DNA from: Ginglymostoma cirratum
Lineage: Eukaryota
Assembly: GCA_024137785.1 (NCBI GenBank)
Contig: JAHRHZ010000025.1
Span: 32,220,024-32,284,023 of the forward strand
Length of the DNA stretch: 64,000 bases
Direction of reading: 5' to 3'
Position 1 is the stretch's first letter. Each line of letters opens with the position of its first letter. Under the pieces are notes generated by a model. That model made no database searches, was not told where the DNA came from, and saw only the letters and a program-made list of their open reading frames with translations. Shown here in pieces: positions 17,413 to 51,332 of the stretch. The position numbers were made by a program, and so were the translations under genes.

Positions 17413-18034
17413 GGGCTAAATTTTATGGGTTTTTTTGGCTAAATCTGAGTTTTTGGATGGATTTCTATCATAAGGGCTAGTGATCTTCTCACCATACCTT
17501 ACCAAACTTACCTTCTTCACTAGTGTGGAGCTGGAGGAACACAGCAGGCCAGGCAGCATCAGAGGAGCAGGAAAGCTGACGTTTCGGGTCGGGACCCTCG
17601 GAAGAAGGGTCCAGACCCAAAACGTCAGCTTTCCTGCTCCTCTGATGCTGCCTGGCCTGCTGTGTTCCTCCAGATCCACACTGTGTTATCTCAGACTCCA
17701 ACGTCAGCAGTTCTTACTATTTCTTACCTCTTTCACTACCTACCCCACCCCATGACATCCGTCATGTCTGATTCCAGCACCGTCTTATCACACACTGCAC
17801 CCAGAGAAACTTAGCACTTAGCAGATATCCTGTTGTGCACTCGGACAAGCACTGTCAGTCTGTAGCTGTCTTGCAAGGTTCCTAACATTTGCCTGGACAT
17901 GGAAGATAGGTGGAAATCTGTTTAACAGTTCAATACTCTAAGAGGGATCAACTTTGAATCTGTGCCCTCCGATTCTGCACTCAGAGTCTAAGGTAAATAA
18001 TGTGCCTCCAACAATGCCATTTAAATTCCAGCTC
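17413..18034. mobile_element. Putative Harbinger-type MITE hosting a Penelope-like palindrome
   Basis: Imperfect inverted termini GGGCTAAATTTT and AAATTCCAGCTC. Confidence 0.35.
17522..17725. mobile_element. Penelope-like pLTR inverted pair (77-bp arms, 7-bp spacer)
   Basis: Arms 17522-17598 and 17606-17682 are near-perfect reverse complements. The centre is a degenerate hammerhead motif (CGGAAGA-A-GGGTCCAGACCC-AAAACGTC). Confidence 0.8.
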
Positions 18035-27708: not shown

Positions 27709-27849
27709 NNNNNNNNNNNNNNNNNNNNNNNNNNNNNNNNNNNNNNNNNNNNNNNNNNNNNNNNNNNNNNNNNNNNNNNNNNNNNNNNNNNNNNNNNNNN
27801 NNNNNNNNNNNNNNNNNNNNNNNNNNNNNNNNNNNNNNNNNNNNNNNNN
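27709..27849. other. Assembly gap
   Basis: Run of N. Confidence 1.
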
Positions 27850-31100: not shown

Positions 31101-33853
31101 ATAACCATAACAGTTCAGTCTCTAGGTAGGGGACCAGGCATACAATGAAAGATGTATTTCAAGATCCCTTGAGAGTCCTGACATGTGGACCTCTATGGTT
31201 ATTGTCCAAGAAAATGCAACTTCTGATAATTGAATAGCCTGCTCCCCAGGACCATCTGTGAAAGCCTGCAAACACAAGTGACAGTCAGAGACACAGGACA
31301 GATCCTTCTTACTGACCTGAATAGCTGCCCAGAAAATGTTAGATAAACTAAAACCTGGTGTAACATCAGGCTAATTTCACAATTGATCCCACTTCAATTA
31401 CCTCACCAAACTATCTCAGCTTCCTAACCACAACCAACACTCCCACCACAACTAGCCCAACACTCAGTCCCTTTAGCCACAAACTCCTTCTCCATCTACC
31501 CTATTGGCTATCCTCCTAAACAACAACCTACTCCTCAAACCAGACCTGCTTACCCACTCTTCTACCTCAAAGTCTTCCTTGCCTATTCAAAACATTCAGA
31601 TTGGACCTTTAAAAATATCCTACAGCAGCCAATGCTGCAAAAAGGAAACAAATCTTGTCTGACGATCCCCTTTACATATGTTCGCTTGGATTTCTGTTCA
31701 GAATATGTTCTTCAGAATGCTATAGCAGACTCTTGTAAATGCAACCAGATAAGTATGCCGTCTTTTTCACTAAGCAGTATCAGAAACAAAAGGAGTGAAT
31801 GTCACCAGATTGTGGCTAAGTTTCCACTTCAAAAAGTTTCTTGGAGGATTTCTCTCCATGATCTCTCGTGAGATATCTGACACAACCGTCCACTGCACAC
31901 CCCATTGTGTATGTGTCACACTCACATGGTGCTGTGTTTCCCTTACCATGTAATCTCCAGCAGCAGGAGTGCTCACTGGCACCAGGACTGTCATGGATTT
32001 GCAAGGCCAACACTATACGTAAAGTCAGTTACACGCCAGGTTAAAATGCTGCCGACCATCAAAGTGCGAGTAGTGGGAGGAAAACTAAAAGGAAAACATT
32101 GTGAGGGCATATAGGCAGCACAGGTGGCACTCTAATGGAAATAGAAGCACCAGATTGTTGATTTACATCATCAGCTCTCTGCTCGACAGTCATTGTAACG
32201 GCAGCTACAAGAATGAAGCCATAGAGGTTACCCATCCTCTCACAGATCACATCTGCCTGTTCAGACTTTCATGTTGGAAATTGTCACTGTCTAGTTTCTG
32301 ACTACTGTCTGATGAAATAGTAAAGTACATATACGTAAGGAAAGAGTAGGTAATAATGAGACATTAATGTATGCAAATTGGTCTCTCACTACTCCCTGGT
32401 GAGATTCTCATCTCGGCACTAAAATTGTGGATTGTTTGTTGTGAATCTCATGTTTCTGATCTCATGATAATTTCCCAACTCACTCATCATTACACATGTC
32501 ATTCAAGGCTGCAAAGATTCCACTCAATGATTCTGGCATATGTCAGAAGATTTGGGCCACTGTGTGCAATAAAAATGAATTGTTTTCGGAAAACACAGCT
32601 TTTGTTATTTCATGTGTTAAGTGTTGATAATCTGCAATTGTTCCGAACATAGATTCCTGTATTTGATATTTTGTTCAAAGACCGTTTATTAAATGACAAT
32701 GTGTTGCAGTTCAACTTTTAAGGGACAAATATAACTAAGTCCTCAAAAGTTCCAATCTTCCAAGCATTTAGAGTATAAAACTACTTCATAATTTAATGTA
32801 TGGAAGAAGCCAGTTTAGAACATAGAACATGGAACTGTACAGCACAATACACGCCGTCCAGTCCATGATGTTGTGCCAAACTTTTACCCTAAACCTAAGG
32901 TCTATCTAACCTCCACCCCTCCTAATGCTATCATCCATATGCCTATCTAATAGCCACTTAAATGCCCCTAATGAGGCCGACTCCACTACCCTCTCCGGCA
33001 ATGCATTCCATGCCCCTACCACTCTCTGAGTAAAGAACCTACCTCTGACGTCTCCCTTATATCTACCTCCACTCACTTTAAAACTATGCCCCTTTGTAAT
33101 AGATACCTCGGCCCTAGGAAAAAGTCTCTGGCTATCCACTCTATCTATACCTCTGATCATTTTGTACACCTCTATCAAGTCACCTCTCATCCTTCGTCAT
33201 TCTAAAGAGAAAAGCCCTAGCTTTCTCAACCTTTCCTCATAAGAGCTTCCCTCCATTCCAGGCAACATCCTGGTAAATCTCCTCTGCACCTTTTTCAATG
33301 CTTTCACATCTTTCCTGTAATGAGGCGACCAGAACTGGACACAATGCTCCTGATGTGGCCGAACCAGGCTTTTGGAGAGCTGGAGCATAACTTCTCGGCT
33401 CTTGAACTCAATCCCTCTATTAATGAAACCTAATACACCATACACATTCTTAACAACTCTATCCACCTGGGTGGCAGCTTTCAGGGAACTGTGGACATGA
33501 ACCTCAAGATCCCTCTGCTCCTCCACGCTGCCAAGAATCTTTCCATTAACCCTGTATTCTGCTTTCAAATTTGTCCTTCAAATGAATCACCTCACACTTT
33601 TCAGGGTTAAACTCCATCTGCCACTTCTCAGCCCAGCTCTGCATCCTATCAATGTTCCTTTGTAACCTAGAACAACCCTCCGCTCTATCCACAACTTGAC
33701 CCACCATCATATCATCTGCAAACTTATTAATCCACCCTTCCACTCCTACATCCAGAGATAAAAGGTACTGCAGATGCTGGAGAATCTGAGATAACAAGCA
33801 TGGGGCTGGATGAACACAGCAGGTCAAGTAGCATCATAGGAGCAGGAAAACTT

Positions 33854-33881
33854 GACGTTTCGGGCCTAAACCCTTCATCAG
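33854..33881 (-). ncRNA. Minimal hammerhead ribozyme motif (core intact)
   Basis: Minus strand CTGATGA-A-GGG-TTTAGG-CCC-GAAA-CGTC. Confidence 0.65.
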
Positions 33882-34093
33882 AAATGGGTGAGGGGAAGAG
33901 GGTTCTGAAATAAATAGGGAGAGAGGGGGAGGCGGATAGAGGATGGATAGAGGAGAGGATAGGTGGAGAGGAGGCAGACAAGTCGAAGAGGCGGGGATGG
34001 AGCATCATCCCGCCCCCTTGACCTGTCCGTCCTCCCTGGACTGACCTATCTCCTCCCTACCCCCCTACCTACACTCACCTTTACTGGCTCCAT

Positions 34094-34494
34094 NNNNNNN
34101 NNNNNNNNNNNNNNNNNNNNNNNNNNNNNNNNNNNNNNNNNNNNNNNNNNNNNNNNNNNNNNNNNNNNNNNNNNNNNNNNNNNNNNNNNNNNNNNNNNNN
34201 NNNNNNNNNNNNNNNNNNNNNNNNNNNNNNNNNNNNNNNNNNNNNNNNNNNNNNNNNNNNNNNNNNNNNNNNNNNNNNNNNNNNNNNNNNNNNNNNNNNN
34301 NNNNNNNNNNNNNNNNNNNNNNNNNNNNNNNNNNNNNNNNNNNNNNNNNNNNNNNNNNNNNNNNNNNNNNNNNNNNNNNNNNNNNNNNNNNNNNNNNNNN
34401 NNNNNNNNNNNNNNNNNNNNNNNNNNNNNNNNNNNNNNNNNNNNNNNNNNNNNNNNNNNNNNNNNNNNNNNNNNNNNNNNNNNNNNNNNNNNNA
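34094..34494. other. Assembly gap
   Basis: Run of N (~400). Confidence 1.
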
Positions 34495-34643
34495 CCCCCC
34501 TACCTACACTCACCTCTACTGGCTCCATCCCCGCCTCTTCGACTTGTCTGCCTCCTCTCCACCTATCCTCTCCTCTATCCATCCTCTATCCACCTCTCCC
34601 TCTCTCCCTATTTATTTCAGAACCCTCTTCCCCTCCCCCATTT

Positions 34644-34671
34644 CTGATGAAGGGTTTAGGCCCGAAACGTC
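34644..34671 (+). ncRNA. Minimal hammerhead ribozyme motif (core intact)
   Basis: CTGATGA-A-GGG-TTTAGG-CCC-GAAA-CGTC, identical to the inverted copy at 33854-33881. Confidence 0.65.
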
Positions 34672-35774
34672 AAGTTTTCCTGCTCCTATGACACTCCTAC
34701 ATCCAAATCATGTACAAAAATCACAAATAGAAGAGGACCCAGAACAGATCCTTGTGGTACACCACTCATAACTGAGCACCATGTTGAATATTTTCCGTCC
34801 ACTACCACCCTTTGTCTTCTAAGGTTCAGCCAATTCTGAATCCAATCTGCTACATTTCCCCCTATCCCATGCCTCCTTTCTTTCTGCATAATCCTACCAT
34901 GGGGAACCTTATCAAACGCCTTACTTAAATCCATGTTTACCACATCCACTGCTCTACCTTCATCCACGTGTTTGGTCATCTTTTCAAAGATTTCAATAAG
35001 GCTTGTGAGGCATGTTATCCCTATTCCCTTTTTTGAACAAGGGAGTGACATTTGCCTCTCTCCAATCTTCTGGCACTATACCCGTGGACAATGAGGATGA
35101 AAAGATCATCACCAAAGGCCCTGCAATCTCTCCCCTCGCTTCCCATAGAATCCTTGGACAAATCCCATCAGGCCAGGGAGACTTATCTATCTTCAAGTTC
35201 CTCAAAATTCCTCATACATCCTCCCTACTAACATCCACCTCCTCTAGCCTATCAGCCTGTTTCACACTGTCCTCCCCTACAACTAGGTCCCTCTCAGTTG
35301 TGAATACTGAAGGAAAGTATTCTTCAAGGATCTCTCCTATATCTTTAGGCTCCATACACAAATTCCCTTTACAATCCTTGATCGGCCCTACCCTTTCTCT
35401 GGTCTTTCTCCTATTCCTCATGTACGTGTAAAAAGCCTTGGGGTTTTCCTTGATCCTATCTGCCAAGATTTTCTCATGCCCTCTTATAGCTCTCCTAAGC
35501 CCTTTCTCCAGCTCCTTCCTGGTTAACATGGACCCTTCTGGAGCCTTTTCCGATCCTTGTTTCCTGAACCTTATATGAGCCTCCTTCTTCCTCTTAACCA
35601 GTCGTTCAGCCTCTCTTGAGAACCAAAGCTCCCTCACTCCATCACATCTTCCCTGCCTGCTAGGGACAAACATACCAAGCACACACAGTATGCATTCCTT
35701 AAACAATCTCCACATTTCTACCGTGCTCCTCCCTGACAGCATCTGTTCCCATTTTATGTTACCCAGTTCTTGCC

Positions 35775-36536
35775 TAACAGAATTAACAATCTCTCCCTAT
35801 TTCTTACCTCATTATCACATGGCACTGGTAGTAATCCAAAGATAATTACCCTGTTTGTCCTGGACTTCAGCTTCCACACTAACTCCCTGTATTTGTCTTT
35901 CACATTCTCAGTCCTTTTTCTACCAATGTCATTGGTACCGATGTGTACCATGACTGCTGGTTGCTCACCCTCCCCCTTAAAGATCTTGAAGACACGATCC
36001 AAGACGTCATGGACCCTGGCACCCGAGAGGCAACATACCATCCATTCGTCTCGTTCGCATTCACAGAACCGCCTGATGTGCCTCTAACTATTGAATCCCC
36101 CACTACAATTGCTCTCCTATTCTCCCCCTTCCCTTCTGAGCCACAGAGCCAGACCCTGTACCAGAGACCCAGTCCCTGTGGCTTACCCCAGTAGGTCCCT
36201 GCCCCCCACTGACCACAACAGTATCCAAAACAGTATACTAATTGTTGAGTGGAACGACCACAGGGGATTCCTGCACTGACTGTTTCCTTCCCTTCCCTTT
36301 CCTTACTGTCACCTAACTGCCTTCATTCTTAGGGGTAACTATGTCCTTGAAGCTCATTTCTATCACCACCTCAGCCTCCCGAATGATCCTGTAGTCACCC
36401 AGCTCCAGCTCCAGTTCCCTAACGCAGTCTTTGAGGAGCTGGAGTTGGGTGCACTTCCCACAGGTGAAGTCAGCAGAGTCACTGCTACCTCCCACATCCT
36501 GCAGGAGGAACATTGCACTGCCCTGACTGCCATCCC
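35775..36536 (-). pseudogene. CR1 ORF1 relic (Cys-rich/leucine-zipper region plus SGNH-type esterase)
   Basis: CxxC...CxxC motif, ELELEL heptads, GDS block I and GTND block III, spread over several frames. Confidence 0.85.
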
Positions 36537-36954
36537 CTCTAAATTTAAACTTGCCCGAAAGATTTGTAATGTCAATGAGTACATCTCTGATGAAATGAAG
36601 AAGACATAGAAATTTGGTGATACTTTCTAGTCCCTGTCACAGTGAGAAGAATGGTGCAGTTGAGCTTTCTCAGGCAAGAGACAAAAGATAAATCAAGGTC
36701 TTCAATCAGTGATTAAATCCTCTCCAATTATCTGGCAGGTTGAGTATGTCCTGAACAATAGGCAAGATGCCTATTGTTGTACATTGACCTGGAAGGGTTA
36801 ATACTGAGGAATGTCATAAGTACCACCCACTACAATGATCTTATGTGGACAGAATAGTTCAGTTCTCAAAGGAGTGAGACTCTAAGATCTGGTCCTCAAA
36901 GTCACTATAGCAATGTCTACCACATCAATGTAGCCCACAACTAGTTGCTAACAT

Positions 36955-50093: not shown

Positions 50094-51332
50094 CAAAAAA
50101 AGCAGAAATTGCTGGAAAATCTCAACAGGCCTGGCAGCATCTGTGGTGAGAAATCAGAGTTATGCTTTGGGTCTAGTAACCCTTCCTCAGAACTGATGGC
50201 AGCTAGGAAAGCTTTTTTATGCAGAAGATAGAGTGAGGGGTGGGGGTAAGGAGTAAATCATATGTGGAGATAGAGTCCAAAGAGAGAGAAAAACTGTTGG
50301 ACAGAAAAAAGAGTGGATGATGGTTAGTTTAGGAGAATGAATAGCTGCTAATGGAGACTGTTAGTGGTTAACAACGTGTTGCATGTAATAGCAACCCATG
50401 TAATAACAAGGCCGAGGATGTGGTGTTGAGTAAGGACATGGGAGAAGGTGCTCAGGCCCTAAAATTGTTGAATTTGATTTTGAGTCCAGAGGCTGTAGAG
50501 TACCCAAGTGGAAAATGAGGTACTGTTCCTCCAGCTTGCACTGAGCTTCACTGGAGAATTGCAGCAAGCCTGAGACAGAGATGCTGGCCAGGGATCAAGG
50601 TAATGTGTTGAAGTAGCAGGCAATGGAAAGCTCAGGCTCTTTTTTGCAGACAGAACGTAGGTATTCTGTGAAGCTGTCCCCCAGTCTATGGAGTCTTAAC
50701 TTAAAATATGTGGACATCTACATGGTTGATTAATTGTAATATCAGCCTGCCCACTGGATAATGTGAATTACAACTCTAAATCTGGATATTCCATATTCAG
50801 GCAGTTTCTTCATTGGTCAATCAGCAAACAATATGCGTGAATCTCCCTGTGGACTGTGTATGAATATTATTTCAGGGGCAAGGTAACCAAATTGCAGTTA
50901 CCAACACCTCATTTTCTACTTGGAGACACTGCAGCCCTCCAGACTCAATATCGAGTTCAATAATTTTAGGCCTGAACTCTCCCATGTTCTAGCACCTTAC
51001 CCCACACACCAGGCTTTGTTATCACACAGTCTGCCATTACACACTACCCATTGTTAGCTACTACCAGAGTAGAAACAGCAATTCGCCCTCCTAGCCAGAT
51101 CAATATCTACTCCTTTGTCTGTCAAACTGCTCCTCTCTCTCTTTGGGGACTATACCCAACTATCATTTATTCCTTACCCTCTCCCCTGACCCTATATGTC
51201 TGCATATAAACCAATATTTTCTTAGTTACCATCAGTTCTGAGGAAGGGTCACTGGACCTGAAACATTAACACTGATTTCTCATCACAGATGCTGTCAGAC
51301 CTGCTGACCTTTTCCAACAACTTCTGTTTTTG
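50094..51332. mobile_element. Penelope-like element: inverted pLTRs, each with a GIY-YIG C-terminal relic
   Basis: Minus strand LLQFSSEAQCKLEEQYLIFHLGTLQP; plus strand QHLIFYLETLQPSRLNIEFNNFR. Termini AAAAGCAGAAATTGCTGGAAAA and TTTTCCAACAACTTCTGTTTTT are inverted. Confidence 0.85.
51238..51268 (+). ncRNA. Hammerhead-like motif, partly decayed
   Basis: CTGAGGA-A-GGGTC-ACTG-GACCT-GAAA-CATTA; the ACGT palindrome is changed to ACAT (consistent with CpG decay). Confidence 0.45.

Follow-up and report, generated by a model that had tools for sequence, protein, structure and literature searches.

We analysed a 64,000-nucleotide stretch of the nurse shark (Ginglymostoma cirratum) genome, hereafter the window (assembly GCA_024137785.1, contig JAHRHZ010000025.1, forward-strand positions 32,220,024 to 32,284,023), in which an insertion at 33755-34691 carries two hammerhead ribozyme cores on opposite strands. 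With a probability of about 0.88, we read this insertion as a 5'-truncated, inverted pseudo-long-terminal-repeat (pLTR) product of an abundant, protein-coding Penelope-like element (PLE) family, likely placed by the family's own reverse transcriptase (RT) and endonuclease (EN) into an older long interspersed nuclear element (LINE), with the hammerheads as passengers predicted to be inactive. The reading is carried by the target-site duplication (TSD), the paired arms, the membership of the insertion in the family, the RT and GIY-YIG frames of other copies, the two-armed layout common in the family and the single source of both arms. The locus is ordinary; only the end of its short arm, at A170 on the scale defined below, is atypical.

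Architecture of the insertion

Positions along the arms are given on a family scale on which A k corresponds to window position 34004-k on the minus arm, so that C3 of the hammerhead is A123 and the predicted cut follows A150. The TSD of 14 bp (33741-33754 and 34692-34705, plus strand) is exact and cannot be extended in either direction; the final two bases of its left copy are shared with the family sequence just beyond the tail, a 2-nt microhomology. Between the TSD copies, two arms stand head to head and differ at 3 of 170 sites (33834-34003, minus; 34522-34691, plus). The arms are unequal in length. The minus arm (33755-34003, A1-A249) reaches the family's complete outer end at 33755, is 5'-truncated at 34003 and is 96.4% identical to a natural copy (L095). 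It alone bears the tail of ~33 nt (33755-33787, A217-A249), which is delimited by the bimodal outer ends of the family; one-sided tails of this kind are known from PMC8557442 and PMC3846280. The plus arm (34494-34691, A-27 to A170) ends 20 nt past the cut site and before the family's usual A206-224.

The inversion junction (34003/34004) lies within an imperfect palindrome (33989-34016) with a calculated DNA hairpin energy of -8.6 kcal/mol. It is followed by a piece of the family's 3' non-coding region (34004-34093, plus, A-83 to A7) and by 400 N (34094-34493). The visible parts of the insertion map at 96-97% identity onto A-83 to A252 of the pLTR family, a segment that is non-coding in the family too, and the absence of a visible open reading frame (ORF) therefore follows from truncation. 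These results support the original prediction of a young Penelope-like insertion with a perfect 14-bp TSD and inverted, hammerhead-bearing arms. Its further suggestion, a non-autonomous ribozyme-bearing retroelement, does not hold: the pieces match the non-coding stretch between the stop of one ORF and the start of the next in a protein-coding family, and the inversion breakpoints vary between copies. On both grounds, we regard the insertion as a truncated product without a family structure of its own.

The insertion sits in the RT region of an older minus-strand LINE, the reading frame of which is interrupted at one copy of the TSD and picked up again past the other. The upstream half of the RT domain is split at the TSD (34706-35075; RVT_1, E=2e-14), and the remainder (32906-33740) resumes past it with an FADD motif and broken frames in the translations; a Pfam search of the segment 33200-33577 returned no match. 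An SGNH/GDSL esterase-like frame (35757-36083, minus) scored under the Pfam cut-off, and an esterase ORF1 fits CR1/L2-type LINEs. Altogether, the target appears as a long LINE in decay that spans 32906-36636 (minus) and contains both esterase-like and RT frames.

The family encodes a reverse transcriptase as well as a GIY-YIG endonuclease

The window lies in an assembly of 4.36 Gb. All 40 scored matches to the plus arm were 96-100% identical. Exact matches numbered 54,726 for a 39-mer from the arm and 29,029 for the 35-mer of the intact ribozyme; the reversed controls had none. In other copies, a GIY-YIG endonuclease is coded upstream of the arm, and at 20 longer loci an RT precedes the endonuclease. 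Locus L075 carries a 699-aa frame without stops in which a DKG-region and YIDD occur together with a C-x4-C-x2-C linker and GIY-YIG. Among three frames submitted to Pfam, GIY-YIG was above the cut-off in two, and RVT_1 was found below the cut-off (E 1e-5 to 6e-6) in two. Look-alikes in the Atlas at 0.98 carry RVT_1/GIY-YIG/HTH_animal. In tandem copies, the arm continues into the 5' end of the next ORF, with the first ATG near A290, ~40 nt past the tail. The arm is a pseudo-LTR because it follows the EN and, in these tandem copies, runs into the next ORF.

The single ORF with RT and C-terminal GIY-YIG of EN-containing (EN+) PLEs is found at family level and is missing from the visible part of the window copy, which itself displays the inverted 5'-truncated arrangement, the one-sided 30-40-bp tail and the TSD. 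The CX2-5CxxC linker between RT and EN is present as C-x4-C-x2-C upstream of GIY-YIG, and linkers of this type mark the Neptune and Nematis clades (PMC8557442). Judged by these sequence features, the family appears to be a protein-coding Penelope-like family of Neptune/Nematis type; the linker does not separate the two clades. A limited literature search found no study devoted to this pLTR family, although one may exist. At one further locus (L079:1496-9321), two near-identical RT-EN copies lie 3.2 kb apart around a 400-N run, as a real tandem or a duplicated assembly.

Paired, unequal arms are the family's normal insertion product

To describe the family's insertions, we used 100 arms drawn from two contigs in the order of their positions (the C1/C2 sample) and 55 head-to-head pairs with a TSD of at least 10 bp (L032-L245, the window's place left out). 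The outer ends of the 100 arms are bimodal, with 48 at A203-227, 51 at A242-268 and one longer. Consistent with this, 53 of the 55 pairs combine one tailed and one short arm. Their TSDs measure 10-19 bp, with 14 bp in 23, and their short arms end at A206-224 in 51 cases and earlier in four (A152, A169, A193 and A198). Among the 37 candidate pairs of the C1/C2 sample, a TSD of at least 8 bp was present in 23; the others are likely, for the most part, chance neighbours. Inner breakpoints differ copy by copy, and the window's 34003/34004 junction is shared by none of the 30 loci closest to the plus arm, its own place excepted. Head-to-head arms, a 14-bp TSD and a one-sided tail of ~35 nt are the family's normal insertion product.

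Both arms of an insertion derive from one source. At subfamily sites, the two arms of an insertion carry different alleles in 1 of 17 pairs (A63), 3 of 36 (A135) and 4 of 50 (A180), against random expectations of 6.6, 16.9 and 17.9, respectively. Seemingly linked differences at A71/A76 had suggested a different RNA template for each arm. This was ruled out: the A71/A76 allele pair occurs only 33 times genome-wide and had been enriched by the query, and true subfamily sites agree between arms.

The 5' junctions were scored in the C1/C2 sample after dropping 32 of the 100 arms, whose junctions lie at or within 30 nt of an N run. Of the 68 clean junctions, 17 fall at the front edge of helix I (A116-123) and 1 at A148-153, and we rejected on these counts the idea that the ribozyme cut sets the ends of copies. 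A second set (n=113) places 35 junctions at A117-123 and 7 at A148-153 (3 at A151); it was partly picked by a query starting at A151, and a minor peak at the cut is neither shown nor excluded by it. A further cluster in C1/C2 lies at A127-130, right after CUGAU, with several members adjoining gaps.

Related copies take other forms. Within the window, 1906-2030 holds a tiny same-family insertion with a short arm (A125-214, minus), 7 nt of tail end (plus) and a 15-bp TSD, whose core lacks C3-U4, and 17525-17724 holds an older head-to-head pair of a sister family, 78-91% identical to the arm, with a decayed core. Short same-strand tandems occur at six loci (L085, L087, L091, L093, L097 and L098, each around 1180-2930). 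These run from A118-123 (or from a gap) through the arm and the tail into the 5' ORF, and then jump back to A117-120, leaving two same-strand hammerheads ~550-1,600 nt apart; they are the family's best retrozyme-like candidates. Queries with the 5' ORF gave 1,781 candidates versus 166 with the RT start.

The hammerhead cores and their predicted activity

The sequence CTGATGA-A-GGGTTTAGGCCC-GAAACGTC is exact in both arms, with C3 at 33881 (minus) and 34644 (plus). Both copies, at 33850-33885 (minus) and 34640-34675 (plus), have the features of a minimal type I hammerhead, namely the core CUGANGA...GAAA, G10.1-C11.1, an NUH site, an extra nucleotide after A9 and a palindromic 15.2-16.2. Cleavage is predicted after 34671 (between 34671 and 34672, plus) and after 33854 (between 33854 and 33853, minus). 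The original prediction was right about the two intact cores, the palindromic ACGU in place of helix III and the extra A between A9 and stem II. Its helix I of ~3 bp is corrected to 4 bp (AUUU/AAGU, one G.U), and helix II is likewise 4 bp, with a U.G closing pair. An extra A at this position is known from the hammerhead of chrysanthemum chlorotic mottle viroid (CChMVd).

The hammerheads were identified by core motif and not by covariance model. The 25-letter motif matched the window three times at up to 3 mismatches and never in 100 shuffles. The Infernal search that had been proposed as a check found no Rfam hammerhead family at gathering score in the window, nor any among the 37 matches at E<=10 in 33700-34760. 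Rfam matches to miRNA families near the junction, far under their cut-offs, were rejected as reflections of a G-rich/C-rich hairpin.

For the isolated motif, the active-like fold was calculated at -4.0 kcal/mol versus -9.3 for the best fold, and the active-like fold is lost in read-through RNA. There, on an equilibrium model of folding and for either strand, all 36 ribozyme nucleotides are predicted to pair with the antisense arm, at a mean probability of 0.999. The antisense arm is transcribed first in read-through RNA from either strand, and only a transcript starting inside the element would escape the arm duplex. It is literally true, as had been proposed, that a transcript from either strand carries one ribozyme copy, but that copy is predicted to be fully paired. 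The two hammerheads are thus predicted to be inactive passengers in read-through RNA of the locus. Nor can the cores partner in one RNA, since they lie on opposite strands. The minimal core requires a partner to complete helix III, with no cleavage by monomers and weak cleavage by dimers (PMC4209133), and the core of an anole element is described as cleaving only with the element's own protein (PMC11167929).

The helix II 12-mer (34652-34663 and 33862-33873) is self-complementary in both common variants, with duplex energies of -17.6 and -22.6 versus -3.7 kcal/mol for the hairpin. The model's best dimer uses helix II, so two copies could also pair through it. Lunse, Weinberg and Breaker reportedly found that PLE hammerheads cleave as dimers.

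We also examined poly(A) reads on the natural tandem copy L095. These come equally from both strands, the library being apparently unstranded; 77% continue into unlike sequence, many derive from the sister family, and the organism read may not be the genome's species. No pile-up of ends was seen on this copy, in a library type that shows such ends poorly. The reads are read-through of many copies, silent on the window locus and weak evidence either way.

Probable near-neutral decay of the copies

The original prediction had counted a lack of preferential core conservation across copies among the results that would speak against it. At copy level no real excess of conservation is seen, with 971 of 30,000 copies changed at six core sites genome-wide (3.24%) versus 1,412 of 36,756 at six control sites (3.84%), although the gap is significant. 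Two CpGs must be intact for the core pattern to match, a bias towards younger copies that may account for the small gap; the control stretch, too, could be under constraint. The CpG of the ACGU palindrome is changed in 7 and 8 of 97 arms. Earlier counts that had suggested a conserved core (2/1,675, affected by alignment-edge bias, and then 1/970) gave way to the genome-wide comparison. Given a gap this small and possibly due to age bias, we take the copies to decay near-neutrally.

Other families of the genome retain the core while stem II varies with its pairing kept (193 sites versus 1 for the reversed control, in a search that demanded both). Two such minimal cores, with different but pairing stem II sequences, lie in the window at 51238 (plus) and 21356 (minus). 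It is thus the source lineages that selection acts on, and not copies of the window insertion's kind.

Proposed mechanism and alternative explanations

In the mechanism that we propose, the family's protein would cut both target strands ~14 bp apart, and each free target end would start a cDNA on one shared source RNA, at either of two internal positions ~35 nt apart. These sites would usually be A216 and A249 and, in the window copy, A249 and, unusually, A170. Both cDNAs would stop early and be joined head to head at a short imperfect palindrome. Any importance of the hammerhead would be confined to tandem source elements, in which the core could be completed by two copies on the same strand or by the element's protein, and copies like the window insertion would decay neutrally. 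The scheme is modelled on Poseidon of Anolis carolinensis (PAc), for which PMC11167929 reports that both target strands are cut and extended, that two internal RT starts bound the tail, and that the ribozyme is dispensable for insertion in vitro.

Several observations weigh against our reading. The window's short arm ends at A170, outside the main short-arm cluster, and the two-start-site step therefore fits this copy on one side only. The two-priming scheme is itself borrowed from a Poseidon-clade element, that is, from another clade. No complete, frameshift-free pLTR-ORF-pLTR source element was found among the 20 long loci. The sequestration of the ribozyme bases is a prediction of an equilibrium folding model. 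The difference between core and control sites, though small, is significant (P=3e-5), and 97 long arms show 1 change in 970 core bases versus ~1.2% in the flanks (permutation P=0.00035). Finally, the flanks of the 400 N, which overlap by 35 nt with a single mismatch, allow two readings: the gap may be spurious, or it may conceal a partial tandem and, with it, a third hammerhead on the same strand.

This last possibility, in which the locus would have the form of a partial tandem plus an inverted copy and two same-strand cores on the plus strand, appears unlikely to us. The 35-nt stretch is directly repeated on both sides of the 400 N, 34 of 35 positions being identical, and partial tandems flanked by inverted repeats are described as the commonest form in D. 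virilis (PMC2377424) and also occur in this family. On the other hand, 400 is the commonest length among internal N runs of the fetched loci (37 of 52), and N lie within 14 of 37 head-to-head pairs, as expected if the assembler fails on a palindrome. An antisense arm would compete for the cores in any case. Overlapping flanks occur in 5 of the 37 400-N gaps, the window's included, and assembly gaps at inverted copies are remarked on in PMC8557442. These observations fit 400 N as an assembler's placeholder at the palindrome, in which case the true insert would be ~500 bp. A second N run in the window, of 141 letters, lies at 27709-27849.

The inverted arm could also have arisen by fold-back, that is, self-primed copying of one cDNA or antisense template, with no second priming at the opposite end of the target. 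Palindromes of this sort led to the proposal of self-priming on an antisense template in PMC3846280. In the window copy, the junction is spanned by an imperfect palindrome, the arms share subfamily alleles, and the short arm's end, at A170, is unusual for a start site. The plus part, however, starts at A-83, which lies upstream of the minus arm's stop at A1, and a first cDNA would have lacked that sequence; moreover, short arms in the family have a fixed end (51 of 55), in agreement with an internal start site. We consider fold-back improbable. By far the least probable, in our judgement, is a non-autonomous, ribozyme-driven, retrozyme-like element that multiplies as a unit and relies on its two hammerheads for processing. 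Both cores are intact, no ORF is visible, short same-strand two-hammerhead tandems exist elsewhere in the family (L085, L093, L097 and L098 among them), and retrozymes are reported to derive from PLE pLTRs (10.64898/2026.07.22.740005). However, non-LTR retrozymes are defined by same-strand tandem units (PMC7229834), and none with a hammerhead each is found among the visible cores, the 400 N being unread. Opposite-strand cores cannot release a unit, the visible part is the family's non-coding end, and the junction's absence from the 30 closest loci besides the window's place leaves the supposed unit without daughter copies among them.

Taking the inverted pLTR insertion as the preferred reading of the locus, the family as a whole, with its tens of thousands of young insertions, may hold a natural record of Neptune-type integration. 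One RNA would be copied twice, once from each end of a 14-bp staggered cut and from two fixed internal starts 35 nt apart, and copying would mostly stop at A116-123, which would be the 5' end of the RNA, and not at the cut. We offer this reading tentatively and think it somewhat more likely to be wrong than right; the A116-123 junction cluster may mark the RNA 5' end. If it is true, the ribozyme would not make the template end; its part would instead be to mark where the RNA starts or to regulate transcripts of tandems, and the same-strand short tandems beginning at A118-123 would be nascent retrozymes.

The locus itself is of little weight, as a routine dead copy with two ribozymes that, by prediction, disable one another. 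The family has some value, since how PLEs insert and what their hammerheads do are still open questions in the accounts of PMC8557442 and PMC11167929, and its end statistics are the only part of this work that could move such a question. The genome offers a large set of young insertions with sharply defined ends, from a clade for which the literature consulted describes no in vitro system. Testable positions are the starts at A216 and A249, an RNA 5' end near A118-120 and the 14-bp stagger.

Comparison with known systems

The layout, the opposite-strand hammerhead pairs and the extra A have all been published before (PMC4209133, PMC3846280, PMC8557442). Animal non-LTR retrozymes (PMC7229834, 10.64898/2026.07.22.740005) resemble the insertion in being non-coding, in carrying a type I hammerhead and a TSD of more than 4 bp, and in their kinship to PLE pLTRs. 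They are described as same-strand tandems with canonical hammerheads that release monomers and circles, whereas the window insertion has minimal cores on opposite strands and does not multiply as a unit. PAc (Frangieh et al. 2024, PMC11167929) shares the two end points that bound a tail downstream of the hammerhead and the lack of a read pile-up at the cut site. It belongs to another clade, and its ORF is described as starting within the hammerhead, in contrast to a first ATG near A290 in the nurse shark family.

The minimal hammerhead ribozymes (min-HHRs) of metazoan PLEs (PMC4209133) share with the window cores the extra nucleotide between 9 and 10.1, G10.1-C11.1, the palindromic 15.2-16.2, a 4-bp helix I and the absence of helix III, and dual min-HHRs ~100-700 bp apart on opposite strands are described there. 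The Schistosoma min-HHR has a helix II of 7-8 bp versus 4 bp here, where the self-complementary helix II 12-mer may offer a second dimer interface. The same source gives 4,000-9,000 copies for coelacanth and Xenopus, compared with at least 29,029 exact copies in the present family.

The closest likeness is to EN+ PLEs of the Neptune/Nematis type (PMC8557442, PMC3846280). The family shares with them the RT, the C-x4-C-x2-C linker and the C-terminal GIY-YIG, together with partial tandems, heavy 5' truncation, the inverted 5'-truncated copy, the one-sided 30-40-bp tail, the TSD, the junction palindrome and assembly gaps at the inversion. In particular, an inverted 5'-truncated copy with a one-sided 30-40-bp tail is described in PMC8557442, and inverted pLTRs with a tail, an 8-10-bp TSD and junction palindromes in PMC3846280; features of this inverted layout also appear in PMC2377424. 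Two differences stand beside this agreement: the short arm of the window copy ends at A170 instead of A216, and the TSD, 8-10 bp in rotifer EN+ PLEs (PMC3846280), has its mode at 14 bp in the nurse shark family.

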